From: Betaproteobacteria bacterium
GTDB taxonomy: Bacteria > Pseudomonadota > Gammaproteobacteria > Burkholderiales > SG8-39
NCBI GenBank assembly: GCA_947478805.1
Contig: CANJXQ010000003.1
Coordinates: forward strand, 6,994 to 70,993
DNA length: 64,000 nucleotides
Reading direction: 5' to 3'
Shown one piece after another: positions 10,080 through 56,981 of the stretch. The position numbers and the translations under genes were made by a program. The stretch's first letter is position 1. Every line of letters starts with the position of its first letter. Under the pieces are notes generated by a model that was given only the letters and a program-made list of their open reading frames with translations, was not told the DNA's origin and searched no databases.

Positions 10080-10096
10080 GTTCCGTGCTTTGGACG
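10080..10096. promoter_or_regulatory. IclR-type operator upstream of dctP
   Basis: GTTCCG-TGCTT-TGGACG; the first 14 bp are identical to the site at 47688. Confidence 0.55.
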
Positions 10097-10122
10097 CTTT
10101 CTGGCCGAGCGCCGTGGTGGGG

Positions 10123-10671
10123 TCAACCGGGCTTTGGTCGGTGGTGATTCGGCCAGTATTTCAGCACCAGTTCGCTCGAGGCCCCATAAGCATAGCAGCT
10201 GTCGATCTTGCTCGGCCTGCCATCCGCGTTGACGTCATGGCGGTTCAAGGTGCTCACCGAGTACATGGTCTGCACGGCCGCGCTCGCCAGCGACACCAGC
10301 ATGTCCTTGAGGTGCGTGCACGTGTCTCCGGACGGCAGGCGCTTGCGGATTTCGCTGTTCCAGCCCCGGCCGATCCGCACGCCCACCATGGCCTGCAGGA
10401 TGTCCGCACCATGCGGGCACTCAGGATAGGGCCACACGCGCATATAGGCCTCGACCTCGACGATCACCATGTCCGCGCCGAAGGCGACCCGCACCACGTG
10501 GTCGTGAATCAGGTCGCCGGCCCGGATAGGCCGATCGCGGCTTGGTGGCTGAAAGTCGATCGCCTTGCGGTCCGTGAGGTTCGCTTCGACCTCGTACAAA
10601 CCGTCGCTGCGCCTAAAGCCCCGTAGCTCGATGCGGCGCAAATGCAGTTCCTCGCGTGTCGGTCCGTTCAT
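10123..10671 (-). CDS. DUF2889-like protein
   Basis: REELHLRRIELRGFRRSDGLYEVEA, PYPECP, CTHL and IDSCYAY match the pattern I recall for DUF2889. Confidence 0.8.
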   Translation of the reverse strand: MNGPTREELHLRRIELRGFRRSDGLYEVEANLTDRKAIDFQPPSRDRPIRAGDLIHDHVVRVAFGADMVIVEVEAYMRVWPYPECPHGADILQAMVGVRIGRGWNSEIRKRLPSGDTCTHLKDMLVSLASAAVQTMYSVSTLNRHDVNADGRPSKIDSCYAYGASSELVLKYWPNHHRPKPG

Positions 10672-10705
10672 GTGCCTGTCCTTGGGTTGCGGGCGTTGGC
10701 CTGCA

Positions 10706-10771
10706 AGCGTAGGTCAATCGAGTCCGGCCGCCAACTTGCGATTCGTGAAGCGGAGATTCGCGAACACTGAA
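10706..10771 (-). promoter_or_regulatory. Putative LysR-activated promoter cassette 4, upstream of the DUF2889 gene
   Basis: Minus strand: TTCAGTGTTCGCGAA-N7-TTCACGAATCGCAAG-TTGGCG-N17-TACGCT. Confidence 0.7.
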
Positions 10772-10777
10772 GTGCAG

Positions 10778-10794
10778 AGCCCGAAGTACGGAAC
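10778..10794. promoter_or_regulatory. IclR-type operator in the DUF2889/caiB divergent region
   Basis: Reverse complement reads GTTCCG-TACTT-CGGGCT. Confidence 0.6.
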
Positions 10795-10888: not shown

Positions 10889-12070
10889 ATGCGTGTACTG
10901 GAAGGAATCCGGGTCCTGGACCTTGGGCGTTTCATCGCCGGCCCGTTCTGCGGCGCTCTGCTGGCCGACTACGGCGCCGATGTCATCCGCGTGGATAAAG
11001 TGGGGGGCAGCGAGGACCGGCACATCGTACCGGTGTCCGAACAGGGCGATGGCGCGCTGTTCCTTCAGGTCAACCGCAACAAGCGATCTATCGCGCTGGA
11101 CATCGAATGCAAAGACGGCCGTGCGGTGCTCAACGAGCTCGTGGCGCGGGCCGACATCGTCATTGCCAACATGCCTGCCAGCACTCTGAAGACGCTCGCG
11201 CTCGACTACGACAGCCTGCGCGCGATCCGTCCCGACGTGATTCTGGTTGCCTCCTCAGCGTTCGGCTCGTCGAAAGCGATGCGCGACCGCATCGCCTTCG
11301 ACGGCGTGGGCCAGGCGATCAGCGGGGCGGTGCACATCACCGGCCATCCCGGCCAGCCGATGAAGATGATGGTGCCTGTGGTGGATTTCGCTACGGGCAT
11401 GGCGTGCGCGCTCGGCGCGATGATGGCGCTCTACGAGCGCAAGACAAGCGGCATGGGGCAGGAGGTGAGCGCATCGCTGCTGCAGACCGCGCTGAATTTC
11501 TCCAGCGGCGCATTGATCGAGGAGGCGGTGTTGCGCATGGATCGTGGTGCCACGGGCAACCGCGCCGCGCAGTACGCGCCCTCGGACATTTTCCGCGTCA
11601 AGGAAGGCTGGATCATCATTCAAGTGATCGGACCGGCCATGTTCAAGCGCTGGGCGCGCCTGGTCGGCCAGCCCGAACTGTTGTCCGACCCCCGCTTTGC
11701 CAACGACGTGGCGCGCGGCGAAAACGGCGAAGTGCTGAGCGGCATCATGTCTCGCTGGTGCGCGCAGTTCACGCGCGAGGAAGCGCTGGCAAGACTGGAA
11801 GAAGCGAAGATTCCATCGGGACCGGTTAGCTCGCCGCGCGAGGTCATCGACGATCCGATCATCCGCGACGCGGGCGCCTTTCACCCCATCGCCTATCCCG
11901 GGGTCGATACGCCCGTGCCGCTGGTGTCGCCTCCTTCCACGCTTTCGCGCACGCCGCCGCAAATCACGCGCCGCCCGCCTTTGTCCGGCGAGCACACGGA
12001 CGAGATCCTCGCCGAACTGGGCTACGCCGCGCAGGCGATTTCGAGCTTGCGGGGGCGCGGCATCATCTAG
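10889..12070 (+). CDS. CoA-transferase family III (CaiB/BaiF)
   Basis: LEGIRVLDLGRFIAGP, NRNKRSIALD, AFDGVGQ and VVDFATG motifs. Confidence 0.94.
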   Translation: MRVLEGIRVLDLGRFIAGPFCGALLADYGADVIRVDKVGGSEDRHIVPVSEQGDGALFLQVNRNKRSIALDIECKDGRAVLNELVARADIVIANMPASTLKTLALDYDSLRAIRPDVILVASSAFGSSKAMRDRIAFDGVGQAISGAVHITGHPGQPMKMMVPVVDFATGMACALGAMMALYERKTSGMGQEVSASLLQTALNFSSGALIEEAVLRMDRGATGNRAAQYAPSDIFRVKEGWIIIQVIGPAMFKRWARLVGQPELLSDPRFANDVARGENGEVLSGIMSRWCAQFTREEALARLEEAKIPSGPVSSPREVIDDPIIRDAGAFHPIAYPGVDTPVPLVSPPSTLSRTPPQITRRPPLSGEHTDEILAELGYAAQAISSLRGRGII

Positions 12071-12148: not shown

Positions 12149-12943
12149 TCAGGGCTGCCCTTCGAAGCCGGCCAGCAGTTTTTCCAGGCTGGCTGCCGCG
12201 CCCTTGAGCACGGGAGCAATGCGCTTGCGCTCGGCAACCAGGTCCGGCTGAAGGTCGGCCTTACCGCAGCTCAGGCCCATCACGGTGCGGCTGCGTCCCA
12301 CGCGGACCGGCACCGCCACCCCGTACGAGTCGCGCTGGAACCCACCCAGCACGCCACAGGCACCCGACGACTCGAGTTCCGAAAAGCTCTCGTGCATGCC
12401 GTGCAGCATCATGGTTTCAAGCGCGCCTGCCGACCGCTTGAGCCGCTCGATGAGCCGATCGCGCTGAGCTTCGGGCTGCGCCCACAGGTAGGCATGGCCG
12501 ATCGAGGTGGTCCCCATCGGCAGCACCGAACCCACGCCCAGGCGCAGGGTCGCCACCTTCGGGCTTGCCCGGTAGGCCACATAGAGCATGTCCCGGCCAT
12601 CGGCGATAGCCAGCGCAACGGACACGCCGAGTTGGTCGGCGAGGTCCTGCATGCAAGGTTCCGCCGCCTGAAGCAGTTCGCTGGACGCCAGGAACGCGTG
12701 GCCGATGCCCAGCGGCCCCGCGGCCAACTCGAACTCGCGGCTGCCGCGCACATGCAGCAGAAAGCCCAGTTGCAGCAGCGTGCTCGTGAGCCGGGACACC
12801 GTTGCCTTTGGCAGGCCAGTGACGCGCACAAGATCGGCGTTCGCCATCGGCGTGCGCGCGGAACGAAAAGCCCGAAGCACATGCATGCCACGGGACACGG
12901 TCAGGATGGCTTCCGCGCGCATTGGCGTTGGCGTTGCGCTCAT
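12149..12943 (-). CDS. IclR-family transcriptional regulator (second of tandem pair)
   Basis: HTH (TVSRGMHVLRAF...TGLPKATVSRLTSTL) and VGSVLPMGTTSIGHA. Start set at MSATPTP (12943). Confidence 0.93.
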   Translation of the reverse strand: MSATPTPMRAEAILTVSRGMHVLRAFRSARTPMANADLVRVTGLPKATVSRLTSTLLQLGFLLHVRGSREFELAAGPLGIGHAFLASSELLQAAEPCMQDLADQLGVSVALAIADGRDMLYVAYRASPKVATLRLGVGSVLPMGTTSIGHAYLWAQPEAQRDRLIERLKRSAGALETMMLHGMHESFSELESSGACGVLGGFQRDSYGVAVPVRVGRSRTVMGLSCGKADLQPDLVAERKRIAPVLKGAAASLEKLLAGFEGQP

Positions 12944-12953: not shown

Positions 12954-13808
12954 TCATGCACGCGTTCCCACCTGCTGGATGCTACGCGCGACTGACAGCA
13001 GCTTTGGCCCCAGTTCGCGCTGGATGCGCGCTCGGGTGATCTGCGCGCTGGAGCCCACGCAGGCAACAACGAACGGCGCATTGCCTTCGACAACGACGGG
13101 CGCGGCGATCATGCCCAGCTCGCGCCCCCATTCGCCCAGCGACGTGCAGTATCCGACTTCGTAGACCTCGCCCAAAGCCTTGCCGAGCCGGCGCCGCAGG
13201 CGCGGCCACTCGCCGGTCACGCGCCGCTCGACGTTTTCCATCAGGTAGTAGCGTTCGAGCTCAGGCAAGGCCGCCAACAGCGCCCAGCCCATCGGCGAGG
13301 AGGCGATGCCCACGCGCGCGCCCACATGCAGATTGAGCGCGAGCGGCACCTGCGCACCGCTGCAGCTTTCGAGCACGATCAGATCCAGCCTGTCACGCGA
13401 ACTCAGGTTGACGTGCACGCGCTGGGTGTCAGCCAGCGTCTGGAGGTGGCCACGGGCGGCACGCTGCAGCTCGGAGTTGGCAATGGCCGCGTAGCCGAGC
13501 GCGAGCACGGGCGCGCCGAGCCGGTACTTGCGTTCGTCCGCGTTGTAATGAAGATAGCCCAGGACCACAAGCGACTGCGCGATGCGCGAGACCGTCGATG
13601 CGGGCAGTTGCGTGCGCGCGACCAGGTCGCGGTTGCGAAGCCATCGGTCTGCGGGCGTGAAGACGCCAAGCAATGCAAGGGCGCGGGCGAACGGTGTCAC
13701 CATGGTGCCCCGCGTCGATCCGGCATGCGCTATGTCTGGCCGCGCGGGTGCGGCGAGGGCCACCCTCCTGGCTGCCGCCGAACCCGATGCCATGCCGGCG
13801 GCGGGCAT
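12954..13808 (-). CDS. IclR-family transcriptional regulator (first of tandem pair)
   Basis: HTH (PFARALALL...TQLPASTVSRIAQSL), LHVGARVGIASSPMGWA. Start uncertain (13808 or 13703). Confidence 0.9.
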   Translation of the reverse strand: MPAAGMASGSAAARRVALAAPARPDIAHAGSTRGTMVTPFARALALLGVFTPADRWLRNRDLVARTQLPASTVSRIAQSLVVLGYLHYNADERKYRLGAPVLALGYAAIANSELQRAARGHLQTLADTQRVHVNLSSRDRLDLIVLESCSGAQVPLALNLHVGARVGIASSPMGWALLAALPELERYYLMENVERRVTGEWPRLRRRLGKALGEVYEVGYCTSLGEWGRELGMIAAPVVVEGNAPFVVACVGSSAQITRARIQRELGPKLLSVARSIQQVGTRA

Positions 13809-13815: not shown

Positions 13816-15771
13816 CTAGACCTTGCCACTGGCGGCCACGCTCCGGATATCGTCCAGAGCGGCCGGATTGTCCAGCGATGACAGGTCACCTGGGGGCGTG
13901 CCGCAGTAGACGCTGCGAATCAGGCGCCGCATGATCTTCGAGCTGCGCGTCTTGGGCAGCTGTCCCACTTGGTGCACGGCACTCGGCCGGAACGGCCGCC
14001 CGAGGCGCTTGTCCACGTGGGCCATGACACTTTGCGCGATCCCATCGGCCGCGCCGGCAACTTCGGGTTTAAGCACCACGAAGACGACGAGTTTCTGCCC
14101 TTTGTCCGCGTCGTCCACGCCGATGGCGGCAGCTTCGGCGACCTGCGGCAGTTCAACCACGATTTCCTCCACTTCCGCCGGCCCGAGGCGTTTACCCGCG
14201 ACCTTGAGCGTGTCGTCGGAGCGGCCCATCATGAAGTAACAGCCGTCGGCCCGGCGCATGGCAAGGTCGCCATGGACCCAGATTCCGGGAATGGTGCGCC
14301 AGTACGTGTCGAGATAGCGCTCGTCGTCATGCCAGAACGACTGCGTCATGCCAACGAAGGGTCCGCGGATCGCGAGTTCGCCTACGGCGCCGGTGAGGGA
14401 GTTGCCGCTGGCGTCCACCACGTCAACGGCAACTCCCGGCGACGCGGTGTTGAACCCGCTGGGTGGAATGGGGCGAACCAGCACGCTGGACAACAGCGCG
14501 CCGGACACTTCGGTGCCGCCCGTGTAGTTGACCAGAGGCTGCGTGCCACGCCCAAAGTGACGCTGGAACCAGATGAAATGCTCCGGCGCGATGCCCTCGC
14601 CAGCCGTGATCAGCAGGCGCACACTGGACGTGTCGCCCTGCGTCGCAATGGCCTCGTTGCCGGCCATGCCGCGGATGAGGGTGGGCGCGGAGCCGAACTG
14701 TGTCACCTTGTGCCGCTCCACGATGCGCGACATGCGCGACCAGTCCGGGAAGTCGGGCGCGCCGTCATAGCACACCAGCGTCGCTCCGCGCAGGAGCGCG
14801 CAGCACAGGACGAGCGAACCCGCGATCCAGCCCATGTCGGCCGGCCAACAGAACACGTCGCCCGGTTGAACGTCGAAGTGAACGAGCGCGTCGTGGGCGA
14901 TTTTGAGAGGGAAGCTCCCGTGCGAATGCACCACACCCTTGGGCCTACCCGTGGTGCCGGAGGTATAGATCACCATGAAGGCGTCGTCGGGCGACATGAC
15001 CTCGGGTTCCATCAGCTTGCCCGCGCCAAGCTCCACGACTTCGTCCCAAGCGATGTCGCGCGCGGGGTCCGGAGCACCCGCGACTTCACCTTTCCATACG
15101 ATGCGTTTCACCGTGGGCAGTTTCGCGCATGCATCGCGCACCGCGCCCTGCACATCGACCCGCCTAGCCCGGCGCGAGAAGCCCGTGCTCGCGATCACCA
15201 CCCTGGTTTCGCCTGCGGACAGGCGAGCGACGATCGCGTCCACGCCGAAGCCGCTGAACAGGGGAACCACGATGGCGCCCATGCACGCAATCGCCATCAG
15301 CGACACAGTTGCCTCCACGCCGTTTTCCATCAGCAGGCCCACACGGTCGCCGCGCGCGACGCCGATCGCCGCCAAGCCACCAGCGAACTCGCGTACCGCG
15401 CGTTCGAGTTGCGCGTAGGTGAGCGAACTAACAGACCCGTCTTCCCTTTCGCCGACCACTGCCAGCCGCGCGGTAGAGGCAGGGTTGCGCGAGTAAGCGA
15501 ACACCGTCTCCACCCAGTTCAACTTCCCGCCGGGGAACCACGACGGAAACTCCGGACCGCGGGTCAGGTCCATGTACCCGGTTGGCGGCGTGCGCCACGC
15601 GATGTCGCAAAAGCGCATGACCACGTCCCAGTAACGGGCAGGATCGGCCGTGGAAAGCGCGAGCAAGTCCTCATAGCGGGTCACACCGAGAGCGCGCATG
15701 AGTTGCACGATGCCCGACGATTCGAGTTCGCGCGTGCCTGGACTCCAGGTGGTGGAAGATGTGTCGGTCAT
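13816..15771 (-). CDS. Acetyl-CoA synthetase-like acyl-CoA ligase (AMP-binding)
   Basis: YTSGTTGRPKG, ADMGWI, GGTE, HGD, GRSDDTLKVAGKRLGPAEVE and PKTRSSKIMRR motifs. Start at MTDTSS (15771). Confidence 0.94.
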   Translation of the reverse strand: MTDTSSTTWSPGTRELESSGIVQLMRALGVTRYEDLLALSTADPARYWDVVMRFCDIAWRTPPTGYMDLTRGPEFPSWFPGGKLNWVETVFAYSRNPASTARLAVVGEREDGSVSSLTYAQLERAVREFAGGLAAIGVARGDRVGLLMENGVEATVSLMAIACMGAIVVPLFSGFGVDAIVARLSAGETRVVIASTGFSRRARRVDVQGAVRDACAKLPTVKRIVWKGEVAGAPDPARDIAWDEVVELGAGKLMEPEVMSPDDAFMVIYTSGTTGRPKGVVHSHGSFPLKIAHDALVHFDVQPGDVFCWPADMGWIAGSLVLCCALLRGATLVCYDGAPDFPDWSRMSRIVERHKVTQFGSAPTLIRGMAGNEAIATQGDTSSVRLLITAGEGIAPEHFIWFQRHFGRGTQPLVNYTGGTEVSGALLSSVLVRPIPPSGFNTASPGVAVDVVDASGNSLTGAVGELAIRGPFVGMTQSFWHDDERYLDTYWRTIPGIWVHGDLAMRRADGCYFMMGRSDDTLKVAGKRLGPAEVEEIVVELPQVAEAAAIGVDDADKGQKLVVFVVLKPEVAGAADGIAQSVMAHVDKRLGRPFRPSAVHQVGQLPKTRSSKIMRRLIRSVYCGTPPGDLSSLDNPAALDDIRSVAASGKV

Positions 15772-15782
15772 ATCGGGGGCCT

Positions 15783-16478
15783 TCAGGCAATCGCCGTTTG
15801 CGGCGCTGGCGCGCAAGGCCTATGGGCGAGCGAGGCAATCATGCCTTTGTCAATTGAAAACCAGCTATCGCAGACGAGGTCTGTGAACTTGATGTTCTGC
15901 TCGGCAACCAGCATGGCCACGCCTTGCGCGCGCAGCGCCTTGATGGCCTGCACGAGCCGCAGCACGACAATGGGCGCCAGGCCCTCGCTCGGCTCGTCAA
16001 GCAGCAGCAGACGCGGCCGGAGCATGAGCGCGCGGCCGATCGCCACCATCTGCCGCTCGCCGCCGGACAGCTTGCCGGCGTAGCGCAGGCGCAGCTTCTC
16101 AAGCTCGGGAAAGAGTTTCAGCACCGGCGCCAAGTCAGCTTCAGAGTATTGCGGCGTGCCGATGGTAAGGTTCTCCTCCACCGTCAGCGACTTGAAGAGG
16201 CGTCCGCCGCTCGGCACGATCCCCATGCCCGATTCCACGCGCTTGTGCGACGGCAGGTTCACGAGTTCGCGGCCCTGCATCGTGATCTGGCCCGACACGT
16301 CGGGAATAAGCCCGCAGAGCGCGGCCAGAAAGGTGGTCTTGCCCGCGCCGTTGCGGCCCACCAGGCCCACAATCTCGCCGGCGGACACGTCGATCGCGCC
16401 GCCGCGAATCACCTTCACGTGGCCGTAGCCCGCGTCGAGCCCCGCAACGTGCAGGACCGTTTCAGATGTCTTCGCCAA
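15783..16478 (-). CDS. livF: Liv-type ABC transporter ATP-binding protein
   Basis: GRNGAGKTT, LSGGERQ, LLLDEPSEGLAP. TTG start preceded by AAGGAGG. Confidence 0.92.
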   Translation of the reverse strand: MAKTSETVLHVAGLDAGYGHVKVIRGGAIDVSAGEIVGLVGRNGAGKTTFLAALCGLIPDVSGQITMQGRELVNLPSHKRVESGMGIVPSGGRLFKSLTVEENLTIGTPQYSEADLAPVLKLFPELEKLRLRYAGKLSGGERQMVAIGRALMLRPRLLLLDEPSEGLAPIVVLRLVQAIKALRAQGVAMLVAEQNIKFTDLVCDSWFSIDKGMIASLAHRPCAPAPQTAIA

Positions 16479-18194: not shown

Positions 18195-18197
18195 ACG

Positions 18198-19079: not shown

Positions 19080-19127
19080 TCGGACGTCCTGTTCATGTCT
19101 GTCTCCCGCTGTTGTTCTTCCAACCGG

Positions 19128-20333: not shown

Positions 20334-20354
20334 GATGTCGATTCCTTACTGTCT

Positions 20355-21104: not shown

Positions 21105-21233
21105 CTATTTTTCTTCCAGAAAGTTGCGCGCAACGAGAACCCAACGTTGCAGCAGGTTGCCGCGCCGGGTCAACACAACGCGGCCGCATGCTCCGCACTT
21201 TAACGGATACTTCCGCGCTTACACCGGCGTGCG

Positions 21234-21250
21234 CTTCCGGTGTACGGAAC
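21234..21250. promoter_or_regulatory. IclR-type operator in the fabG/acyl-CoA dehydrogenase divergent region
   Basis: CTTCCG-GTGTA-CGGAAC, a near-perfect dyad. Confidence 0.7.
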
Positions 21251-44455: not shown

Positions 44456-44466
44456 AGCAGGGCACC

Positions 44467-45459: not shown

Positions 45460-45478
45460 TGGCCGCAGGCCCGACCTG

Positions 45479-47687: not shown

Positions 47688-47721
47688 GTTCCGTGCTTTG
47701 GTCCGTTCCGGCACACGGAAC
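47688..47721. promoter_or_regulatory. Two abutting IclR-type operators in the Bug/2-hydroxyacid dehydrogenase divergent region
   Basis: GTTCCG-TGCTT-TGGTCC (47688-47704) followed directly by the perfect dyad GTTCCG-GCACA-CGGAAC (47705-47721). Confidence 0.75.
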
Positions 47722-49743: not shown

Positions 49744-49768
49744 CCCACCCACCACAAAAGGAGACTCA

Positions 49769-50962
49769 GTGACTCATCTTGGAAATTGCCTTCGGCAGGC
49801 CCTGGCCGCCACGCTCACCACCACGGTTTTGGCCGGCGCGTCCGCGCCGGCCTACGCTCAGGATATCAACATGGAAGGCGTTGGCAAGGACCGCGTCCTG
49901 CTGGGCACCTCGACGCCGCTCACGGGCCCCGTCGGGCCGCCGTGCAAGCCGGTGAGCGACGGATCGCTGGCCTGGTTCCAGCACATCAACGACCAGGGCG
50001 GCATCAAGGGCCGCAAGGTCGACAACACCGTGCTGGACGACGCCTACAAAGCGCCCGAGGCGCTGGCCAATGGCAGGCAGTTGGCAGCCAAGCCGGTGTT
50101 CGCGTTCTTCGCCGGCTGCGGCACGCTTCAGCCGCCGGTGCTGATGCCTATCGCCAAGCAAAACAATATGCTGTACCTCTTCCCCTCGGCCGGCAATCCG
50201 GAACTGATGACGACGCCCTTCGTCTACAGCCTCTGGCCCCTGTACAGCGACCAGTTCGGCGGCCTGGTCTCCACCACGCTGGGCAAGTACGGCGCGGGCA
50301 CCGTCTTCAGCATCCTGCCGGACGTGCCCGGCATCGAGGAGACCATCACCCGGATCAAGGAAGGCATCACCGCGGGCAAGGGCAAGTACCTGGGCGAGGA
50401 ACGGATCACGCAGCGTGAAGCGGACTACACGCCACTCGTGCTCAAGATCAAGGCGCTCAAGCCCGATTACCTGATCGTCCACACGACTGCCCCCGCCACC
50501 GCGAAGATCGTCAACGCGCTGCAGGCGCAGGACGCGATGCCGCCCAAATACCTGCTGGGCGCGGCAACGATGGCGTCTCCCGCCTTCCTCACCGCCGGCG
50601 GCACGCTCATCAACAACAAGGCGCTGGTCGTCATTCCCGTTGTTCCCGCCGACGACGCGCGCGCCAAGACGTGCCTGGACGTGATGAAGAAGTACACGCC
50701 CGACACACCCGTCGACTCGTTCAGCCTCTATGGCTGCGCGATCGCCCAGGTGTTCACCGCGATCCTGGCCGACACGCCGGAGCCGCTCACGCGCGCTTCG
50801 TTCGAAAAGACCATGATGTCCTGGAAGGGCAAGAAGGCGACCGAACTGATGCAGCCCATCACCTTCAACAACCCGCAACACCTGGGCGCCGGCGAGATGA
50901 CGCTTGGCAAGATCGTGAACGGCAAGGTGGTGGCCGACGGAACGGTGGTCCTGCCGAAATGA
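49769..50962 (+). CDS. Liv-type ABC substrate-binding protein
   Basis: PLTGP, INDQGGIKGRKV, LDDAY. GTG start after AAGGAG. Confidence 0.9.
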   Translation: MTHLGNCLRQALAATLTTTVLAGASAPAYAQDINMEGVGKDRVLLGTSTPLTGPVGPPCKPVSDGSLAWFQHINDQGGIKGRKVDNTVLDDAYKAPEALANGRQLAAKPVFAFFAGCGTLQPPVLMPIAKQNNMLYLFPSAGNPELMTTPFVYSLWPLYSDQFGGLVSTTLGKYGAGTVFSILPDVPGIEETITRIKEGITAGKGKYLGEERITQREADYTPLVLKIKALKPDYLIVHTTAPATAKIVNALQAQDAMPPKYLLGAATMASPAFLTAGGTLINNKALVVIPVVPADDARAKTCLDVMKKYTPDTPVDSFSLYGCAIAQVFTAILADTPEPLTRASFEKTMMSWKGKKATELMQPITFNNPQHLGAGEMTLGKIVNGKVVADGTVVLPK

Positions 50963-52794
50963 AAGTTTCCACGGAGGCCCGCAGCGGCACGGCGCTCGCC
51001 ACAGCGGCGACGCTGGCTGTTCTGGCCGCCGCCCCGTTCCTGCCGCTCGGGGACCGTTTCCACCTCATCCTGACGATCGGCCTGATCTATGCGATCGCGG
51101 CCGTCGGCATCGACATCTTCTCCGGTTATTGCGGGCAACTCACTTTCGGCAATTTCGCGTTTATGGCGATAGGCGCCTATGCGTCGGCCATCCTGTCGGC
51201 CGACTACGGCTGGAACCCCTGGGCAACCCTCATCGGCAGCATGGCGGCAGCGGGACTGATCGGCCTGCTGCTGGGCGCCGCCGCCGTGCGGCTGCCCCAC
51301 CTGGGCACGGCCATGGGGACATTTTTCTTTGCGACGACCGTGGCCGTGGCGCTGCGCGGCGCCACGCTGTCGCCGCTGACGCGCGGGCCCACCGGCCTGC
51401 CTGTGAACAAGGTCAGCCTGTTCGGCGGGCCGATCACGCCCGCCGCCATTTACTGGCTGGCGTGGGTGCTGCTGGCCATCGTGACACTGATCTCCTACCG
51501 CTACGCCAACTCGCGCGCGGGCATGGCGCTGCGGCTGATTAAACGCAGCGAAGTGGTGGCGGAATCGATGGGCGTGCACGTGTTGTCGCACAAGCTGTGG
51601 GCCTTCGTGTGGTCCACCATCGCGGCCGGTATCGCGGGTTTCGTCTATGCGCAGGCGCTGGAATACATCATCCCGGAAGCCTTCCCCGGCTTTGAGTCCG
51701 TCATCCTTCTCACCATGGCCATCATCGGCGGCCTGGGCAGCATCGCCGGGCCGATCATCGGCGCGGTCGGCTTTTCCATCCTGGGCGAGCTCACGCGTTC
51801 GGCAGGCGATGTTCGGCAAATCTTATTCGCGCTACTGCTGCTGGCGAACCTCGTCTTCATCCCCGGCGGGCTCTACAGCGTGATTGAATGGGTGGGCGCG
51901 CTCGGCCGCAAGAATGACAAACAGGGCGGCAGCGGGCAGCCCGCGCCCGAGGCGCCCGTAGTAACAGGCGCATCACGCACTGCCACAGTCACTAGGCGCG
52001 AGCCCCTTGCGCGCGATGCAACGGTGCCACCCGTCCTCACCTTGAGGGACCTGACGGTGCGCTTCGGCGGCGTGACCGCCATCGACACGGTGAGCATTGA
52101 AGTGACGCGCGGCACGATCCACGCCATCATCGGCCCCAACGGCGCGGGCAAGACCACCCTGCTCAATTGCATCAGCGGCCTGCAACCGCACGAGGGGGAG
52201 ATCCGCTTTGGCGACAGGCGCATCGTGGGCCTGACGGCGCGCGCGGTGCGGCGCAGCGGCCTTTCACGCACTTTCCAGAACCCATCGCTCGTGGCCGACC
52301 TGACGGTCCTGGAAAATGTGCGAATGGGCACCTGCGGCACCACGCCCAGCTCGCCGCTGCGCGACATCCTGCCTTTGCCCTCCACCATCGCGCGCGACGC
52401 CGAGGCGGCGCGCCTAGCGCACGCCGCGCTCGACACCGTCGGCTTCGCAGCGCAGCGCCGCCACCTGCGTGCAGGCGACCTGTCGCTGGCCGACCAGAAG
52501 ATCGCGGACATCGCGCGGGCCATCGTGGGCGCGCCGCAACTGCTGCTGCTCGACGAGCCGACCGCGGGCCTGTCGGAAAGCGAAATCGAGCTGATCGCCG
52601 GTGTCTTGCAGAAGGTCAATCGCGACCACGGGATGACCATCGTCGTGATCGCGCACCACATCGGCTTTGTGCGCGCGGTGGCCGACTGGGCCACGGTGCT
52701 CGATTTCGGCAAGTGCATTGCGGAGGGCCTGCCCGACGACGTGACCAGCCGCAAGGACGTCATGGACGTGTTCCTGGGAGCGGAAGATGAGTGA
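50959..52794 (+). CDS. Fused LivM permease / LivG ATPase
   Basis: N-terminal GYCGQLTFG..F.AIGAY permease, a P/A/T-rich linker, then C-terminal GPNGAGKTT, SRTFQN and LLLDEPTAG. Confidence 0.92.
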   Translation: MKVSTEARSGTALATAATLAVLAAAPFLPLGDRFHLILTIGLIYAIAAVGIDIFSGYCGQLTFGNFAFMAIGAYASAILSADYGWNPWATLIGSMAAAGLIGLLLGAAAVRLPHLGTAMGTFFFATTVAVALRGATLSPLTRGPTGLPVNKVSLFGGPITPAAIYWLAWVLLAIVTLISYRYANSRAGMALRLIKRSEVVAESMGVHVLSHKLWAFVWSTIAAGIAGFVYAQALEYIIPEAFPGFESVILLTMAIIGGLGSIAGPIIGAVGFSILGELTRSAGDVRQILFALLLLANLVFIPGGLYSVIEWVGALGRKNDKQGGSGQPAPEAPVVTGASRTATVTRREPLARDATVPPVLTLRDLTVRFGGVTAIDTVSIEVTRGTIHAIIGPNGAGKTTLLNCISGLQPHEGEIRFGDRRIVGLTARAVRRSGLSRTFQNPSLVADLTVLENVRMGTCGTTPSSPLRDILPLPSTIARDAEAARLAHAALDTVGFAAQRRHLRAGDLSLADQKIADIARAIVGAPQLLLLDEPTAGLSESEIELIAGVLQKVNRDHGMTIVVIAHHIGFVRAVADWATVLDFGKCIAEGLPDDVTSRKDVMDVFLGAEDE

Positions 52795-53509
52795 CAGCGC
52801 AACGCCCACGCTCCAGGTGCGCGAGCTTGCCGTCAGCTACGGCGCGGCGCGCGTGATCGGCAATGTGAACATCGACGTGGCGGCCGGAGAAATCGTGGGC
52901 ATGGTGGGCCCCAACGGCGCGGGCAAGACCACGACGCTGCGCGCGATCTCCGCCCTGGTTGCGCGCCAGCGCGGACAGGTGATGCTGGAGGGGGTGGTGC
53001 TCGGCGAGCGGCCCGAAATCATGGCGCGCGCCGGGATCGCCCACGTGCCCGAGGGACGCGGCCTCATACCCAGCCTGACCGTCCACCAGAACCTGCGGCT
53101 GGCCGCGATCGGTGCGGGCAGGAAGCTGTCGCAGGAGGACGTCGCGTATGCCACGGCGGTCTTTCCGCTGATCGAGCGCCTGATGGACCGGCGCGCCGGG
53201 TTCCTCAGCGGCGGTGAGCAGCAGATGGTCGCGATTTCGCGTGGCCTGGTCGCGCGGCCGAAGATTTTGATGATCGATGAGCTGAGCCTGGGACTGGCGC
53301 CGCGGATCGTGAAGGACATGTCGCGGGTATTGCGGCGGGTCGCGAACGAACGGCAGATCGGCATCTTCCTGGTGGACCAGAATGTGCGCGGTCTTTCGCA
53401 TGTCTGCGACCGCATCTATGTGCTGCAGGACGGCCTGAGCTCGGTCGCAAACAAGGATGACACGGACCTGATGCGGGCGGTCTATTTCGGCCGAGCCACG
53501 GCTGCCTAG
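52787..53509 (+). CDS. livF: Liv-type ABC ATP-binding protein
   Basis: GPNGAGKTT, HVPEGRG, LSGGEQQ, IDELSLGLAP. Confidence 0.93.
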   Translation: MSDSATPTLQVRELAVSYGAARVIGNVNIDVAAGEIVGMVGPNGAGKTTTLRAISALVARQRGQVMLEGVVLGERPEIMARAGIAHVPEGRGLIPSLTVHQNLRLAAIGAGRKLSQEDVAYATAVFPLIERLMDRRAGFLSGGEQQMVAISRGLVARPKILMIDELSLGLAPRIVKDMSRVLRRVANERQIGIFLVDQNVRGLSHVCDRIYVLQDGLSSVANKDDTDLMRAVYFGRATAA

Positions 53510-53534: not shown

Positions 53535-54497
53535 CTATTTCAACTCGCCAGCTTCGCGCTTGAGCCGGGCCCAGCGGTTGTAATCCTTCTCGAGCACATC
53601 GCGGAATGTGCGAGCGTCCGAGAAGACCGCCTTGTTGCCTCCTTGCGCCGACATGGCCACGAAGCCTTCGCCCTCCACTGCCTTCTTCAGCGCGGCAGCC
53701 AGCTTCTGGATGACGGGCGCAGGCGTTCCGGGCGGTGCCACCAGGCCGTTCGTGCCTTCGTACTCGAAGTCCTCGATGCCTTGCTCCCCCGTCGTGGGGA
53801 CGTTGGGAAACATCGTCGAGCGCACGCTGCCGCCGGACGCTATCACCCGAAGCGTGCCCGCCTTCACGTGCGCACCGGCCTGCGAGGCGTCTGTGATGAG
53901 AACGCCAATGCGGCCCGCAATGACGTCGAGCAGGGCGGGCTGGATGCCCTTGTGCGAAATGTGCGTGACGTTCAGTCCGCGGCGCTTGGCAAAGACGGTC
54001 ACCACCATGTGGCTGGGGCTGCCATGGCCGGACGACGTGTACGGCGCGCCGGGGTTGGCCCGGAAATATGCCTCCAGCTCCGCCATGTTTTTCACGTCCG
54101 CGACCTTGGGGTTCACGACGACGACGGTCGGCTGCACGATGGTGCTGCCGATCGCCGAGAAGCGCTTGTCGATGTCCAGCGGCTTGTCCTGCGCGAGCAG
54201 CGCCACCGTCGTCACATTCGGCAGCAGCAGCACGGTATAGCCGTCGGGTTTGCTGGCTGCAAGCGCCTCGAGGCCAATGAGGCCGGTGACGCCCGGCTTG
54301 TTGTCGACAATGACGTTCTGTCCGAGGCTCGTCGACATCTCCTTGGCCAGGAAGCGGCCAATGGCATCGGTGGGGCCGCCGGCTGCGAAGCCGATGATCA
54401 TCTTGATCGGCTGCTCCGGGTAGCCCTGTGCCCACGCGGTGCTGAGTGGTGCCGCAAGCAGAAGGGATGTGGCTAGCAGCCGGCGCAAGAGCTTCAT
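53535..54497 (-). CDS. Bug/TctC receptor
   Basis: YPEQPIKMIIGFAAGGPTD, DNKPG, PDGYT, HISHKG. Confidence 0.93.
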   Translation of the reverse strand: MKLLRRLLATSLLLAAPLSTAWAQGYPEQPIKMIIGFAAGGPTDAIGRFLAKEMSTSLGQNVIVDNKPGVTGLIGLEALAASKPDGYTVLLLPNVTTVALLAQDKPLDIDKRFSAIGSTIVQPTVVVVNPKVADVKNMAELEAYFRANPGAPYTSSGHGSPSHMVVTVFAKRRGLNVTHISHKGIQPALLDVIAGRIGVLITDASQAGAHVKAGTLRVIASGGSVRSTMFPNVPTTGEQGIEDFEYEGTNGLVAPPGTPAPVIQKLAAALKKAVEGEGFVAMSAQGGNKAVFSDARTFRDVLEKDYNRWARLKREAGELK

Positions 54498-54536
54498 GGA
54501 TCGATTCTCCGGAGTGTGTCAAAAAAATCTGATGTG

Positions 54537-55589
54537 CTAGCAGGCCAGGCTGTACACCTTGTTGGCCGTCCCGAAAAACAGGCTGTCCAGTTCGGCCTGC
54601 GAACAGCCCGAGGCGATCCGCTTGTACGCATTCCAGACGGTGGCGTAACTCGCGCTTTGCTTGTCCGGCGGAAAGTTGCTCTCGAACATACAGCGGTCCA
54701 CGCCGAAGAGATCGATCGCCGTCTTATAGAAAGGTGCCCATGCCGCTGCCAGCGCTTCAGAGCCAGCAGGCACCTCGCGGTTGTTAAAGCCCAGCCCGCT
54801 GAAAGGCATGCCCAGGCCACCCAGCTTCACCCGCACGTTCGGGCAAGCAGCGAGAGCCAGCATCGATTTCTTCCAGTCGGCAAAGACCTCGTCCTTGCGC
54901 GACGCATAAGGCCCCACGCCCAGCGGACTGCCCACGTGGTCCAGCACCATCGTCGCCTGCGGCACCGCGCGCGCCAGGTCGGCGAAGTCGGGGTTTTGCA
55001 CATGGTAGTGGCAGCTGTCATAGACCAGGCCTCTGGCCGCCACGCGCGCCAGGCCCTTGCGGAACTCGACCCCGCGCATCAGGTCCTTCGCGGGCGCGAG
55101 CGACCCGAACTCCCCCACCAGCGGTTCATAGAAAGCGCGGTTGCGGATACCGCGCAGCCGCCCATTGCCGGCGGCGATGTGCGCGTCCAGCACCCTGTCG
55201 ACCTTGTCGCCCAGGCGCAGGTCCGCATAGGACACGATGCCCGCATTCACCAGCGCGCCGCCATAGTGGCCACTCGCGCCCATGGCCGCGATGCCGTTGG
55301 CGAATTCGGTTTCGCCCACGGGCCGCAGGTCCTCGTCACCGTCCTTGCGCCACATGGCCGAACACTCCACGAACATGGTGGCAACGATGTTGTGCCCGGT
55401 CGCGATGTCGGCGGCAAAGTCCTCGATCAGGTAGCTGTCATGCGGCCTGCCAACCAGGTGATGATGCGGGTCGATGATGGGCAGCGCCGGCAACAGGATT
55501 TCTTCGGGTTCCTGCGCGGCGTAGCGCTGATCCAGAACGGCGAGCGTCTGGCGGACGTCCCACTCCTTACCCTTGGGCGGCGTGTGCAT
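54537..55589 (-). CDS. Amidohydrolase_2 family protein (COG3618 lactonase-like), paralog A
   Basis: IIDPHHHL, RGIR, LDHVG, KLGGLGM, FGVDRCMFESNFPPDK. Confidence 0.92.
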   Translation of the reverse strand: MHTPPKGKEWDVRQTLAVLDQRYAAQEPEEILLPALPIIDPHHHLVGRPHDSYLIEDFAADIATGHNIVATMFVECSAMWRKDGDEDLRPVGETEFANGIAAMGASGHYGGALVNAGIVSYADLRLGDKVDRVLDAHIAAGNGRLRGIRNRAFYEPLVGEFGSLAPAKDLMRGVEFRKGLARVAARGLVYDSCHYHVQNPDFADLARAVPQATMVLDHVGSPLGVGPYASRKDEVFADWKKSMLALAACPNVRVKLGGLGMPFSGLGFNNREVPAGSEALAAAWAPFYKTAIDLFGVDRCMFESNFPPDKQSASYATVWNAYKRIASGCSQAELDSLFFGTANKVYSLAC

Positions 55590-55604
55590 GGAGTGCCCGC
55601 TGCC

Positions 55605-56837
55605 TCAGGCAATGGACAGCGCCATGCTCGAATAGCCCCACTGGAACGACGAAGGCGTGCGCACGGCCTCTTCGATCGTGTACTCGGGGACGCGCCGCAG
55701 GAACTCCTGCAGGAGGATCTTGCCCTCCAGCCGGGCCAGGTGCGAACCGATGCAAAAGTGCAGTCCGTTGCCAAAGCCCAGGTGCCGTGTGTTCGGCCGG
55801 TTCCACTGGAACTGGTCCGGGTTGGGATACTCACGCTCGTCGCGGTTGCCAGACTGGATCAACGCGACCACGCGCTCACCCACTTCGAGCTTGTGACCGG
55901 CGATGGTGACGGGCGTCAGCACCGTGCGCATGAACCACTGGGCGGGGCCGCAGTAGCGCAGCATTTCCTCGAAAGCAGGCCGGGCGTTGTTCTCCAGGTC
56001 GCTCATCACCTCGGCCTTCTGGGAGGGATTGCGGTTGAGTTCTAGCAGGCCATGCGCAAAGACCTTGGGAAGCGTCTCCGACCCGCCCAGCAAGATGCTG
56101 GAGATCAGGATGGCGATGTCGTTGACGGTGAGCTTGCGCCCTTCCACCTCCAGCTCGCGCAGCTTCTCGATCACGGGCAGGGGGCGATCGCTCTGGCCTG
56201 CGATCTGCCTGCGCACCGCCTTGCGGCAGATCTCCAGCAAGGTGTCGCGGTTCTTGATCCAGTCGGGCGGAAAGCCGCCTGTCACAGGGTCCTGCTTGGT
56301 CGCGAGATTGGCCGCGGCCAGCACCTCGGCCGCATCTTCGACGGGAACGCCGGCCATGCCGCAAACCGATCCCGCGGCCACGATGCCGGCAAAGTCGAGC
56401 GTTACGTTGAAACGCTTCTGGGGGATCAGCTTGTCCAGCAAGGCGTTGGTGCGCTTGCGGATGTCGTCGGCCAGCGCCGTGACGGACTTGGGCTTGAGTT
56501 CCGCCATCATGGCCTGGCGCAGCTTGCCGTAGGTTTCGGTCTCGTTGAAACCGAGCAGCGGCGTCGGGTCCTTCTGCCACTTGGGCCCCGCGCCCTTTTC
56601 AAACTTGGACAGCCCCTCCTTGTTGCTGAGAGTTCCCTCGGCACTGTGGAAATGGGCGTCGTTTTCGAAAATGCTCAGCACGTCCTCAAAGCGCGAGAAC
56701 GCCCAGGCGTTGTACTGCGGCATGTGGTGGACCGGAAAGTGGTCGCGCAGCTCCTTGTAATACGGAAGGGGGTCGCGCATGACGGCGATGGAGAACGGGT
56801 CGTATTTGGATGTCCTGGCGATTTCGGCTGTGGTCAT
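55605..56837 (-). CDS. Cytochrome P450
   Basis: YDPF..DP...Y..LR, GGSET I-helix, EMLR, GNRDE, heme motif FGNGLHFCIG. Start MTTAEI at 56837. Confidence 0.95.
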   Translation of the reverse strand: MTTAEIARTSKYDPFSIAVMRDPLPYYKELRDHFPVHHMPQYNAWAFSRFEDVLSIFENDAHFHSAEGTLSNKEGLSKFEKGAGPKWQKDPTPLLGFNETETYGKLRQAMMAELKPKSVTALADDIRKRTNALLDKLIPQKRFNVTLDFAGIVAAGSVCGMAGVPVEDAAEVLAAANLATKQDPVTGGFPPDWIKNRDTLLEICRKAVRRQIAGQSDRPLPVIEKLRELEVEGRKLTVNDIAILISSILLGGSETLPKVFAHGLLELNRNPSQKAEVMSDLENNARPAFEEMLRYCGPAQWFMRTVLTPVTIAGHKLEVGERVVALIQSGNRDEREYPNPDQFQWNRPNTRHLGFGNGLHFCIGSHLARLEGKILLQEFLRRVPEYTIEEAVRTPSSFQWGYSSMALSIA

Positions 56838-56931
56838 GGTGTTTTGGGCTGTGAGGCGCAGGTAAATGGAAAAGCCTGTAACAGCAATTACGCTGACTGG
56901 CACTTGCGGACGCAATGGCGGCGGGTAAAGT

Positions 56932-56981
56932 GTTCCGTACATCGGGATGGCGGGCCTGCCGCCGATGTCAAAGTACGGAAC
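56932..56981. promoter_or_regulatory. Pair of IclR-type operators in the P450/ferredoxin divergent region
   Basis: GTTCCG-TACAT-CGGGAT (56932-56948) and ATGTCA-AAGTA-CGGAAC (56965-56981). Confidence 0.72.

Follow-up and report, generated by a model that had tools for sequence, protein, structure and literature searches.

A mixed IclR activator, assembled from two different proteins called here IclR-A and IclR-B and bound to polar boxes ahead of most of the island's gene runs, is on balance the reading that best accounts for the sequence evidence as a whole. The island lies in the window (the whole stretch of 64,000 nucleotides that was analysed), which comes from a genome that is 90% complete.

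The original prediction listed eleven 17-bp boxes sharing the fixed half GTTCCG. All eleven are present letter for letter, and all lie between genes on a gene map made with our own hexamer gene caller, in which four starts were corrected and a ferredoxin of 68 aa (34564-34770) was added by hand. Every box matches the GTT-11-AAC layout (GTTYCR and YGRAAC halves around a 5-nt centre), with one half exact. The expected intergenic enrichment was also borne out. GTTCCG occurs 44 times on the two strands of the window. Intergenic DNA makes up 2,733 bases (4.3%) of the window and holds 12 of these copies, two of them from the palindromic site at 47705 (binomial p 2e-7). Dinucleotide shuffling of the intergenic DNA (1,000 rounds) gave a mean of 1.6 and a maximum of 6, and GTTCCG is the top-ranked hexamer when the intergenic DNA of the window is compared with that of the remaining genome. 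The hexamer by itself is not specific, because 32 of the 44 copies are inside genes. Ten of the boxes have leave-one-out matrix scores of 13-25 bits; box 47705 scores 1.2 bits in the orientation first proposed. A matrix scan of the genome at a cut-off of at least 18 bits gave 16 matches, 15 of them intergenic and 10 within the window. Of the six held-out matches, one lies just beyond the window on the same contig, C3 (window-equivalent 64210). Contig C140 has three and C196 one, and the sixth is inside a gene on C57. The boxes are almost certainly real regulator sites.

The boxes are polar, their fixed half (GTACGGAAC) being the one nearer the promoter. The labels -10, -35 and about -60 used here were assigned from sequence. 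The end of the box lies 16 nt before a TTG (+17) and 39 nt before a -10-like hexamer (+40). Of the 11 window boxes, 8 have the hexamer nAnnnT at +40, where the background is 3.6% and looking in the reverse direction yields a single case (1 of 11); T stands at +45 in 10 of the 11. In other genomes TTG stands exactly at +17 in 34 of 45 intergenic boxes; in the window it stands at +16 to +18 in only 6 of 11, the other five promoters being without a TTG -35. Across genera the spacing from box to promoter is exact to 1-2 nt, and the boxes never overlap the -35 or the -10. In an orientation-blind test, where the TTG alone set the direction (n=28), the perfect half was on the promoter side in 20 cases and on the distal side in 1. 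The inner positions are not mirror images (24 of 28 have A at position 11, 2 have the corresponding T at position 7), and the distal half has a preference of its own, for A at position 7 (18 of 28). The box as a two-fold symmetric palindrome is therefore rejected. Around more distant IclRs, a control group in which three loci (L020, L062 and L067) carry other tandem IclRs, the corresponding counts were 7 and 8 of 12, so that boxes appear lopsided near the IclR pairs and symmetric near the more distant IclRs. TTG at +16 to +18 likewise occurs in 13 of 33 control-group sites. A class I activator site, centred near -61, precedes the -35 by a set distance, and this is the position that the boxes occupy on the assigned labels. 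Because they are polar and upstream of the -35, we read them as activator sites and not as repressor-type operators; on this positional evidence they probably act in activation.

In what follows the bits for each box are scores on a matrix labelled 'other-genome', which was seeded from the window matrix and is not fully independent of the window; leftward boxes are on the minus strand and rightward boxes on the plus strand, as are the gene runs that they face. The leftward box at 10080..10096 (CATGAT at +40, 20.0 bits) faces dctP-dctQ-dctM of a TRAP transporter (7151..9986), a putative target. The rightward box at 10778..10794 (TAGCAT at +40, 20.9 bits) faces a family III CoA-transferase (10889..12070), part of the conserved core, with an orthologue at least 50% identical in 9 of the 19 long pair loci. 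The remaining core genes flank one intergenic region. There the rightward box at 21234..21250 (TTGGAC at +17, TAGCAT at +40, 22.1 bits) faces an acyl-CoA dehydrogenase (21303..22454). A degenerate twelfth box, GCTCCG CACTT TAACGG (21190..21206, TTGACC at +17), was overlooked originally and scores just 5.6 bits; relatives show a clear box at the same place. It faces leftward to the genes for an SDR, a thiolase, livHMGF and an acetate-CoA-ligase-like enzyme, the presumed acyl-CoA ligase (13816..21104), and possibly on to iclR-B and iclR-A.

Further right, the leftward box at 23543..23559 (TTGAGC at +17, CAAGGT at +40, 14.4 bits) faces a Bug/TctC gene, and that at 33298..33314 (TCCAAT at +40, 23.5 bits) a putative target run encoding a BVMO, two SDRs, a PrpD-like protein and two LivK (26223..33225). 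The closest solved structure to the BVMO is phenylacetone monooxygenase (E 2e-175), and the box is kept before BVMO orthologues in other genomes. Next to each other lie a leftward box at 34442..34458 (TTGACT at +18, CATACT at +40, 10.5 bits) before a cyclase-family gene and a near-symmetric rightward box at 34465..34481 (TACAAC at +40, 16.0 bits). The latter faces a predicted run (34564..46657) with ferredoxin, FMN dehydrogenase, HpcH aldolase, reductase and P450 (37727-38917) genes, the rest of the run holding Bug, SMP-30/lactonase, liv and MFS genes; its Ramlibacter orthologue keeps GTTCCA-N5-CGGAAC and TACAA. A leftward box at 47688..47704 (TAGGAT at +40, 16.4 bits) before a Bug/TctC gene adjoins the palindromic rightward box at 47705..47721 (AACAAT at +40, 11.3 bits), whose likely target is a 2-hydroxyacid dehydrogenase with liv genes (47801..53509). 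Boxes 34442, 34465 and 47705 are without a TAC core and look like the symmetric sites near single IclRs. Finally, the leftward box at 56932..56948 (TTGCGT at +17, CGTAAT at +40, 23.5 bits) would serve the second P450 (55605-56837), an amidohydrolase and a Bug protein (53535..56837), and the rightward box at 56965..56981 (TTGACG at +17, CACGAT at +40, 26.4 bits) a ferredoxin, ferredoxin reductase, amidohydrolase and Bug run (57072..60576). The pairs 47688/47705 and 56932/56965 are both kept in Ramlibacter. The last run, with CoA-transferase, zinc-type oxidoreductase and LivK genes (60595..64000, minus strand), is headed by the box at window-equivalent 64210. It had been proposed that the boxes cover six divergent promoter regions; each region does hold a box, but each box is one-sided, and three of the regions have a listed box (10778, 21234 and 23543) for one direction.

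IclR-A (257 aa, 12149..12922, minus strand) is BaaR/DcaR-like; its database form has 264 aa, and the start may lie 7 codons earlier. IclR-B (249 aa, 12954..13703, minus strand) is encoded directly upstream. Both have Pfam HTH_IclR (PF09339) and IclR_C (PF01614) domains over the cut-off, both find PDB 5WHM as best match (E 7e-32 for A, 1.6e-47 for B), and they are 30% identical to each other. In a tblastn search of this genome (E 1e-5) they are the sole matches of their kind. They form separate clades, each with support of 100. The recognition helix of A carries Lys39 in 39 of the 40 rows of its clade, B having Ala or Pro at that position, and the helix of B carries an invariant Thr and Arg (35/35); conservation over the helix-turn-helix is 0.92 for A and 0.70 for B. 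Among 44 A orthologues, B is directly upstream in 35, elsewhere in the locus in 3 and absent in 1, with 5 at a contig edge; the adjacent order B then A thus holds in 35 of 39 informative loci. The genome with the sole A without a B within 10 kb holds two B orthologues elsewhere. Three clusters of B-A fusion proteins (543-594 aa, one lineage, 48-61% identical) were found; their B halves group in a single clade within B and their A halves in a single clade within A, and the A and B trees match (Mantel r 0.67, 28 pairs). Co-inheritance and monophyletic fusions of this kind are what would be looked for in a heteromeric regulator. Adjacency, matching trees and fusion can also arise from linkage alone. 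In the predicted structure of a natural fusion both halves fold, with their mutual packing not fixed (pTM 0.39).

The box follows the pair across genomes. A window-trained matrix applied to 43 loci with an A orthologue gave 39 intergenic matches and 1 coding match at 15 bits or more. In ten genomes with an A orthologue the box-plus-TTG pattern occurs 109 times, against 40 for reversed-pattern controls, and is clustered in islands; in 60 relatives without a close A it shows no excess (126 against 176 controls). All six matches in the source genome are on C3. The polar box adjoins the pair in unrelated genera, in several loci directly upstream of iclR-B. In Ramlibacter G068 boxes precede the orthologous P450 modules (both), BVMO, acyl-CoA dehydrogenase/SDR and 2-hydroxyacid dehydrogenase/Bug genes, which are spread over four contigs. 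From these comparisons we consider it very likely that the A/B pair reads the boxes, and the original assignment to an IclR-type box stands, since the box fits the published GTTYCRYW3RYGRAAC (PMC8222616) and tracks an IclR pair. That another IclR or a global regulator reads them, with the pair as a passenger, is highly improbable: the genome has 13 IclR helix-turn-helix matches and three boxes are on another contig, but C140 carries paralogues of island genes, and the passenger idea fits neither the boxes beside the pair in unrelated genera nor the missing excess in relatives without it.

The manner of reading can be weighed in the same way. Repression, as by the nearest characterised relative BaaR on a beta-oxidation operon (bioRxiv 10.1101/251942), with the spacing incidental or due to looping between divergent boxes, is very unlikely in view of boxes that stop short of the -35, a spacing kept across genera and the five window promoters without a TTG -35, as expected of activation. 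It is possible, though we think it unlikely, that an A homodimer binds and activates, the lopsidedness reflecting RNA polymerase contacts on the promoter side and B being a co-inherited modulator (a sensor or anti-activator) that does not read boxes. The far more conserved helix-turn-helix of A, which keeps the Lys found in single IclRs, and the locus with A and no B nearby speak for it, and homodimers can have lopsided sites, TtgV being an example noted in PMC8222616; the lower conservation in B is also compatible with A binding alone. Against this, the distal half has its own preference and is not merely decayed, the recognition helix of B retains its invariant residues, and the fusions persist across considerable divergence. 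It is less probable still that A and B are independent homodimers of overlapping specificity, reading TAC-core and near-symmetric boxes as two sub-regulons with different effectors. The lower scores of boxes 34442, 34465 and 47705 (10.5-16 bits) and the conservation of the non-TAC form at 34465 in Ramlibacter fit such a division; the +40 spacing common to all boxes, polar TAC boxes that a symmetric homodimer explains poorly, and fusions joining both proteins do not. We lean somewhat towards the mixed A-B complex as such.

On the basis of these observations, we hypothesise that A and B bind the box as a mixed complex and activate the promoter from about -60 when an effector, likely a catabolic acid or acyl-CoA, is present. 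Each subunit would read one half-site. A, with the more conserved helix-turn-helix, would probably take the promoter-side half, and B the looser distal half, WTTYCRAA. A published trend linking Lys28 to G/C would place A on the G/C-ended half, but does not hold for DcaR PA1630, whose site is A-ended although it carries that lysine. RNA polymerase would be recruited in class I fashion by whichever subunit lies closest to the -35, and the pair likely stimulates its own transcription. With one box per promoter, co-induction would reach about 51 of the 54 genes in the 7.1-64 kb section, a count in which operons are taken from spacing and 9 genes depend on the weak box 21190; it would also take in runs past the window and on C140. 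IclR family members normally pair with copies of themselves, so a mixed activator, if true, would be unusual, and EMSA or DAP-seq with one IclR at a time could then give a false negative. More broadly, we see about an even chance that the Burkholderiales hold a widespread, undescribed two-gene IclR class, an obligate A-B heteromer. Each subunit would read its own half of a one-way operator whose polarity sets one subunit against RNA polymerase at -60, two ligand pockets would give an AND gate or a split of sensing from activation, and the island-scale regulon of 50 or more genes would gain and lose modules (P450s, BVMO) via box gain.

The original prediction joined about 47 kb into one regulon with one effector, and so one pathway. 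A shared regulon is likely, because orthologues of the P450 modules, BVMO and beta-oxidation core keep the box elsewhere. Its extent was underestimated, with further boxes at window-equivalent 64210, 64243 and 70051 and on C140. A single regulon for the whole island is rejected, because the MmgE/PrpD and double MaoC genes (23655..26188, plus strand) have a promoter match of their own, TGGACA-17-TACGAT, and no box oriented toward them, and because a LysR-type element heads four promoters. LysR-type promoters have a T-N11-A dyad near -65 and a second, weaker box abutting the -35. Such promoters precede a CoA-transferase (3655..3720, minus strand), an SDR (5035..5100, plus strand), a nitronate-monooxygenase-family gene (7070..7135, minus strand) and a DUF2889 gene (10706..10771, minus strand, in one intergenic region with box 10778), with leave-one-out scores of 23.0, 23.0, 22.3 and 19.9 bits. 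The spacing of their parts is the same in all four, and they are the top four matches in the genome; that at 3655 reads TTCGC-n5-GAGAA, 7 nt, the second box and TTGGCT-17-TAACTT. The element recurs before orthologues in relatives, where orthologues (50-53%) of the LysR-family regulator at 287..1213 (plus strand) adjoin it, and this regulator is the likely reader.

One effector for all members is doubtful, and one pathway does not follow, because the two ligand-binding domains of the likely regulator differ, regulon membership is variable (P450 orthologues were found in 1 of 10 pair-bearing genomes searched) and the transporters and CoA-transferases have many paralogues. The core (acyl-CoA ligase, CoA-transferase, acyl-CoA dehydrogenase, SDR and thiolase) is a module for CoA-dependent beta-oxidation, and it takes its input from front ends that vary, namely the BVMO with esterases, two P450s and many binding proteins. 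The island would thus be a funnel for a substrate class rather than one linear pathway; its enzymes have no close characterised match that names a substrate.

Among known systems, the GTT-11-AAC subgroup of IclR group 1 (Suvorova and Gelfand 2021, PMC8222616; motif as above) shares the 17-bp length, GTTCCG/CGGAAC halves, 5-nt centre, catabolic targets and some tandem boxes. In the main text, motifs are taken to be symmetric palindromes that a single protein binds, and such regulators are said to control, as a rule, one or two adjacent operons; the island box is polar and promoter-fixed, and about 13 of the window's gene runs are headed by it. The words 'heterodimer' and 'paralog' are absent from that main text; in its supplements GTTCCGTAC is limited to one Rhodobacter site, and four helix strings taken from A and B orthologues have no exact match. 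Membership of the PcaR/PcaU/PobR subfamily (TIGR02431) was rejected, A scoring 118.9 and B 95.8 bits against a cut-off of 284.75. PcaU, PobR, PcaR and MhpR act as single proteins. They activate catabolic operons from GTNCG-N5-6-CGNAC-type sites (PMC8222616); unlike at these activators, no third box is seen at the island sites. LigR1 and LigR2 of Pseudomonas putida likewise jointly control neighbouring catabolic operons, but form no tandem pair (pp_2609, pp_2601) and have ATTA-type sites; the main text of the preprint has no 'hetero-' wording (bioRxiv 10.1101/2025.08.13.670189).

The nearest solved relative of A and B is found with BaaR of Brucella, DcaR-DcaS of Acinetobacter baylyi and PA1630 (PDB 5WHM). 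These too are linked to CoA-dependent beta-oxidation genes, and A. baylyi holds two such IclRs in one region. Unlike the adjacent A and B, which are only 30% identical to each other, DcaR and DcaS (ACIAD1688, ACIAD1684) are non-adjacent by locus tag, and each shares 54-59% identity with BaaR. BaaR is described as binding alone to a TTTCGC/GCGAAA palindrome (bioRxiv 10.1101/251942); the acyl-CoA dehydrogenase/SDR region has GTTCCG-type boxes instead. PobR of S. coelicolor differs in being a single polypeptide from Actinobacteria that represses pobA; almost every A/B locus has two separate genes, and the geometry there points to activation of many promoters. In its reported structure (PMC5814911; PDB 5W1E), unlike IclR units pair their DNA-binding domains about a pseudo two-fold axis, and of the ligand pockets only one is filled. 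This architecture is shared by the B-A fusions, and PobR thus provides a precedent for the pairing of unlike IclR halves.

The window spans bases 6994-70993 of contig C3, has a flat composition of 65% G+C and belongs to a 4.4 Mb genome that is 90% complete. It encodes family III CoA-transferases, SDRs, a thiolase, an acyl-CoA dehydrogenase, an acetate-CoA-ligase-like enzyme, a BVMO, two P450s with their redox partners, parts of TRAP, Liv and Bug transport systems, one LysR, and two tandem IclR regulators, here called IclR-A (12149-12922, minus strand) and IclR-B (12954-13703, minus strand, directly upstream of A). The first P450 run starts with a gene for a 68-residue ferredoxin (Fer4_15; 34564-34770) and also encodes a 2Fe-2S/flavin reductase, giving two redox partners for one P450. 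Upstream of the window on the same contig (L003:1323-7253) lie genes for a hot-dog-fold-like hydratase, an acyl-CoA dehydrogenase, a CoA-transferase cut to 43 codons, a further CoA-transferase and a citrate-lyase-beta-like protein; this cluster recurs near the IclR pair in other genomes, and resembles clusters of the itaconate/mesaconate type. The named relatives of both IclRs come from Burkholderiales. IclR-A was not found at E 1e-30 in any of ten same-genus genomes (66-94% complete), and was matched in five of 60 relatives at just 32-37% identity. The island is therefore patchy among its kin.

The eleven 17-bp boxes of the original prediction, which share a fixed GTTCCG half, all read exactly as had been quoted. 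They lie in DNA in which this hexamer is strongly over-represented: 12 of the 44 copies in the window are intergenic, while intergenic DNA makes up 4.3% of the window, and 1,000 shuffles of that DNA gave a mean of 1.6 copies and a maximum of 6. GTTCCG is the top-ranked hexamer of the intergenic DNA. A genome-wide scan with the 11-site matrix found 16 matches of at least 18 bits, 15 of them intergenic and one within a gene. Of the intergenic matches, ten fall inside the window and one lies a short way beyond it, while contigs C140 and C196 have three and one. A 40-site matrix built from other genomes, which was seeded by the window matrix and so is not fully independent of it, found at 20 bits or more eight intergenic boxes on the window's contig and C140, and one coding match elsewhere; it adds a box at the equivalent of window position 70051. 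A palindromised matrix was tried and rejected, since it separated intergenic from coding matches less well than the oriented matrix (15/24 against 20/30 intergenic at 15 bits) and put fewer of its top matches in the island. Catabolic genes of similar kinds are also present on C140, and four of these share 57-72% identity with genes on the window's contig. C140 is an 11-kb contig (L002) with boxes at 255, 3954 and 8329, and its paralogues (57-72%) are of genes at the far end of the window's contig; it is perhaps another piece of the same island.

The boxes are polar, a feature that the first reading did not see. If the boxes are turned so that CGGAAC is their 3' half, each of them faces a gene start, and a hexamer resembling a -10 element begins at +40: CATGAT (box 10080), TAGCAT (10778), TAGCAT (21234), CAAGGT (23543), TCCAAT (33298), CATACT (34442), TACAAC (34465), TAGGAT (47688), AACAAT (47705), CGTAAT (56932) and CACGAT (56965). 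The pattern nAnnnT occurs at this offset in eight of the 11 boxes and in one of 11 in the opposite direction, against a background of 3.6% (p 4e-10, uncorrected for the 22 offsets examined), and there is a T at +45 in ten of them. TTG is present at +16 to +18 in six of the 11; of 45 boxes taken from other genomes, 34 have it at exactly +17, so that the box ends 16 nt before the -35 element. If transcription starts at the usual distance, the box centre would be near -60; a position of this kind, upstream of the -35 element, is that of a class I activator.

There is one box per promoter, and where a divergent region has two boxes they point outward (34442/34465, 47688/47705, 56932/56965 and, outside the window, 64210/64243). 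On the opposite side of the region of box 21234 there is only a degenerate box (21190, 5.6 bits, with TTGACC at +17), in a place where relatives have a clear one. In the region of box 23543 no box faces prpD-maoC, which has a promoter match of its own, TGGACA-17-TACGAT. It is worth adding that window 56860-57075 and L001:1120-1330 (equivalent to about 64120-64330) are copies of one control cassette with unrelated genes downstream; in both, the boxes are 33 bp apart and are followed by TGCGTTTGACGC. The genes that follow the second copy here are, in Ramlibacter, a continuation of the ferredoxin run, which suggests that a promoter cassette was duplicated during rearrangement.

A second promoter design occurs at 3655-3720 (minus strand, position 3706), 5035-5100 (plus, 5035), 7070-7135 (minus, 7121) and 10706-10771 (minus, 10757). 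It consists of a TTCGC-n5-GCGAA-like dyad, 7 nt, a weaker second box, a TTG -35, 17 nt and TAnnnT. The four score 20-23 bits when each is left out of the matrix in turn, and are the genome's top four matches to their own design. The design matches the two-box layout of LysR sites. In other genomes the design is found before orthologues of the SDR, the nitronate-monooxygenase-like protein, the CoA-transferase and a Bug-DUF2889 run, in two of these genomes close to a LysR orthologue of 50-53% identity, and this points to the LysR gene at 287-1213 as its probable reader. The element was also considered as an IclR site of the BaaR type. This was rejected, because its second box lies at -35, it accompanies LysR orthologues, and the DcaR site, as given in the accessible part of PMC8222616, has a centre of 3 nt between TTTCGC and GCGAAA. 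There is thus a small, separate LysR-type regulon interleaved with the IclR-type one, and because of the match at 10706-10771 the DUF2889 side of the 10.7-kb region belongs to it.

IclR-A and IclR-B are 30% identical. Both have BaaR as their closest solved structure and both score below the PcaR/PcaU cut-off. They are the only tblastn matches of their kind, at E 1e-5, in a genome with 13 IclR helix-turn-helix matches in total. For the box scan 89 related loci were fetched, from which eight near-duplicates in the pair group, 14 in the control group, and L095, L096 and L098 were omitted. With a threshold of 15 bits, the 43 loci that have an A orthologue (near-duplicates removed) gave 39 intergenic matches and one coding match, and 26 loci of more distant IclRs gave nine and one. 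For the box-plus-TTG pattern, ten genomes with an A orthologue gave 109 matches against 40 for reversed controls, higher in all ten, whereas 60 relatives without a close A showed no excess (126 against 176). Since chance alone gives the loose pattern GTACGGAAH-N15-17-TTG in 48 of 61 relatives, bare presence is uninformative, and the evidence was limited to clustering and to any excess over the controls; the matches do cluster, for example 10 of 12 within 73 kb in genome G061. In that genome a 24-bit box with TTG (L113:6094-9136) faces a gene within the island for a SelB-like selenocysteine elongation factor. In several loci a box lies directly upstream of iclR-B, which suggests that the pair may activate its own transcription.

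Relatives retain a recurring core order, namely acyl-CoA dehydrogenase, two boxes, then SDR, thiolase, (liv), acyl-CoA ligase, B, A and CoA-transferase, with core orthologues at least 50% identical in 9-12 of 19 long loci. BVMO orthologues of 76-85% identity lie within box-headed runs in four other genomes (L018, L026, L116, L127). Close P450 orthologues were found in one of ten genomes searched, a Ramlibacter, where the modules are rearranged over four contigs and the boxes nevertheless retained before their orthologues. The boxes there score 19 and 22 bits for the second P450 and its ferredoxin, 20 and 18 for the 2-hydroxyacid dehydrogenase and Bug, 21 for the BVMO, and 20 and 13 for the dehydrogenase/SDR pair. 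The first P450 run keeps its box, which lacks TAC beside the fixed half, as GTTCCA-N5-CGGAAC with TACAA at about +40, and in this comparison boxes and TTGACG stand as conserved islands amid diverged spacers. Such conservation supports the prediction that the boxes tie the island into one regulon, but the claim fails at the DUF2889 side, with its LysR-type design, and at prpD-maoC, which no box faces. The same Ramlibacter has a second, more distant A/B pair (L128:2160-3900; 36-39% identity) with the same polar boxes directly upstream, so the box alone does not define one effector. Several genomes have multiple B orthologues (six at 43-48% in G069), which raises the question of cross-pairing. 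Cultured, non-pathogenic bacteria that carry the pair include Cupriavidus numazuensis and Burkholderia sp. WSM2230. In a plasmid record (L101:3139-4344) an automatic prediction names the island's thiolase gene OXA beta-lactamase, very probably in error.

Several observations speak for a mixed A-B complex as the reader of the boxes. Among 44 A orthologues, B is directly upstream in 35, elsewhere in the locus in three and missing in one, and five of the A orthologues lie at a contig edge; three plasmid records have the same B-then-A order. A and B form separate clades (support 100), and their distances correlate (r 0.67, 28 pairs), although linkage alone could give such a correlation. Among 8,000 candidates scored for longer forms there were three B-A fusions of 543-594 residues, with N-terminal halves 38-57% identical to B, C-terminal halves 49-57% identical to A, and linkers of 47-52 residues. 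Each half forms one clade (0.92 and 0.99), nested in B and in A, which makes this one old fusion and no sequencing slip. AlphaFold gave a pLDDT of 38 for the fusion P0122 from a single sequence, and from a four-sequence alignment a pLDDT of 68 and pTM of 0.39, with both halves IclR-like but no defined packing of one against the other; these models carry no weight in the case. The sites are lopsided: using an orientation-blind matrix, with sites oriented by TTG alone, 20 of 28 have the perfect half on the promoter side and one has it on the distal side, and the inner bases are not mirror images (GTA on the promoter side in 22-24 of 28, AA on the distal side in 18). Sites near more distant IclRs are symmetric (7 versus 8 of 12). 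The recognition helices are also unlike, with Lys39 in 39 of 40 A rows and Ala or Pro in 32 of 35 B rows. In the part of PMC8222616 available, this lysine (Lys28 there, a numbering inferred from its supplement rows) trends with an outer G/C pair of the site. By that trend A would read the half nearer the promoter; DcaR does not follow it, and it is a hint only. At linker-helix residue 77 of A (gene span 12152-12922), Tyr or Phe is found in 39 of 40, the matching B position is Ala in 35 of 35, and more distant IclRs mostly have Val or Leu, a possible knob-into-hole arrangement favouring A-B.

Some points speak against a mixed complex. The helix-turn-helix of B is less conserved than that of A (0.70 against 0.92), three window boxes are without TAC (34442, 34465, 47705), a homodimer can have lopsided sites, as TtgV does according to the portion of PMC8222616 seen, and the control group includes three other tandem-IclR loci. 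These three lie at L020:10001-11631, L062:9992-11536 and L067:8747-10253. The Amorphus pair among them, in A-then-B order, has one member sister to clade A and the other sister to clade B, so IclR pairing may be old and wider than Burkholderiales. Weighing both sides, the sequence evidence argues for a real, conserved, island-scale IclR-type regulon interleaved with the LysR-type one, and we predict, with the balance tilting slightly in favour, that it is activated from about -60 by the tandem pair as a mixed complex.

To judge from gene families, the core would convert an acid to its CoA ester and pass this to beta-oxidation, and the BVMO, the P450s, the dehydrogenases and the esterases just past the window might supply acids from ketones, esters or alcohols. 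Among solved structures the BVMO is closest to phenylacetone monooxygenase. None of the enzymes is so near to a characterised protein that the substrate could be named from it, and no close solved or plasmid relative of the P450s was found. The original prediction of one effector and one pathway is called into question by the five LivK and five Bug proteins encoded in the window, the variable membership and the two unlike ligand domains. More probably, the island is a funnel for a class of substrates. The box with its fixed -35/-10 spacing is a sharp tag, by which orphan P450s, a BVMO, esterases and dozens of binding proteins can be assigned to one inducible set, and the identity of the inducer would point to substrates for all of it.

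IclR regulators have been described as homodimers or tetramers that bind symmetric sites and control one or two operons. If true, a heteromer encoded by two genes and bound to a polar site would add a new mode of action to the family. It would explain the retention of tandem iclR genes in Ramlibacter, Bordetella, Burkholderia, Paraburkholderia and Cupriavidus, and also how EMSA or DAP-seq with one protein alone could overlook targets. Neither a two-gene heteromeric IclR nor the present locus was found in the literature covered, most subscription journals and bioRxiv supplements being outside its scope. The 'heterotetramer' of bioRxiv 10.1101/2025.02.21.639450 is, in the text available, an acyl-CoA dehydrogenase and no IclR precedent. 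The box motif type itself is published, in the sections of PMC8222616 at hand, for symmetric sites of single proteins. BaaR and DcaR are related to A and B, and BaaR is described in the accessible part of bioRxiv 10.1101/251942 as a repressor with another palindrome; LigR1 and LigR2, in that of bioRxiv 10.1101/2025.08.13.670189, are not a tandem pair, unlike A and B. A precedent for such pairing is PobR of S. coelicolor, in which, according to the portion available of PMC5814911, two unlike IclR units pair their DNA-binding domains with one pocket occupied. An A/B heteromer, if it exists, would be the split counterpart of this Streptomyces protein.
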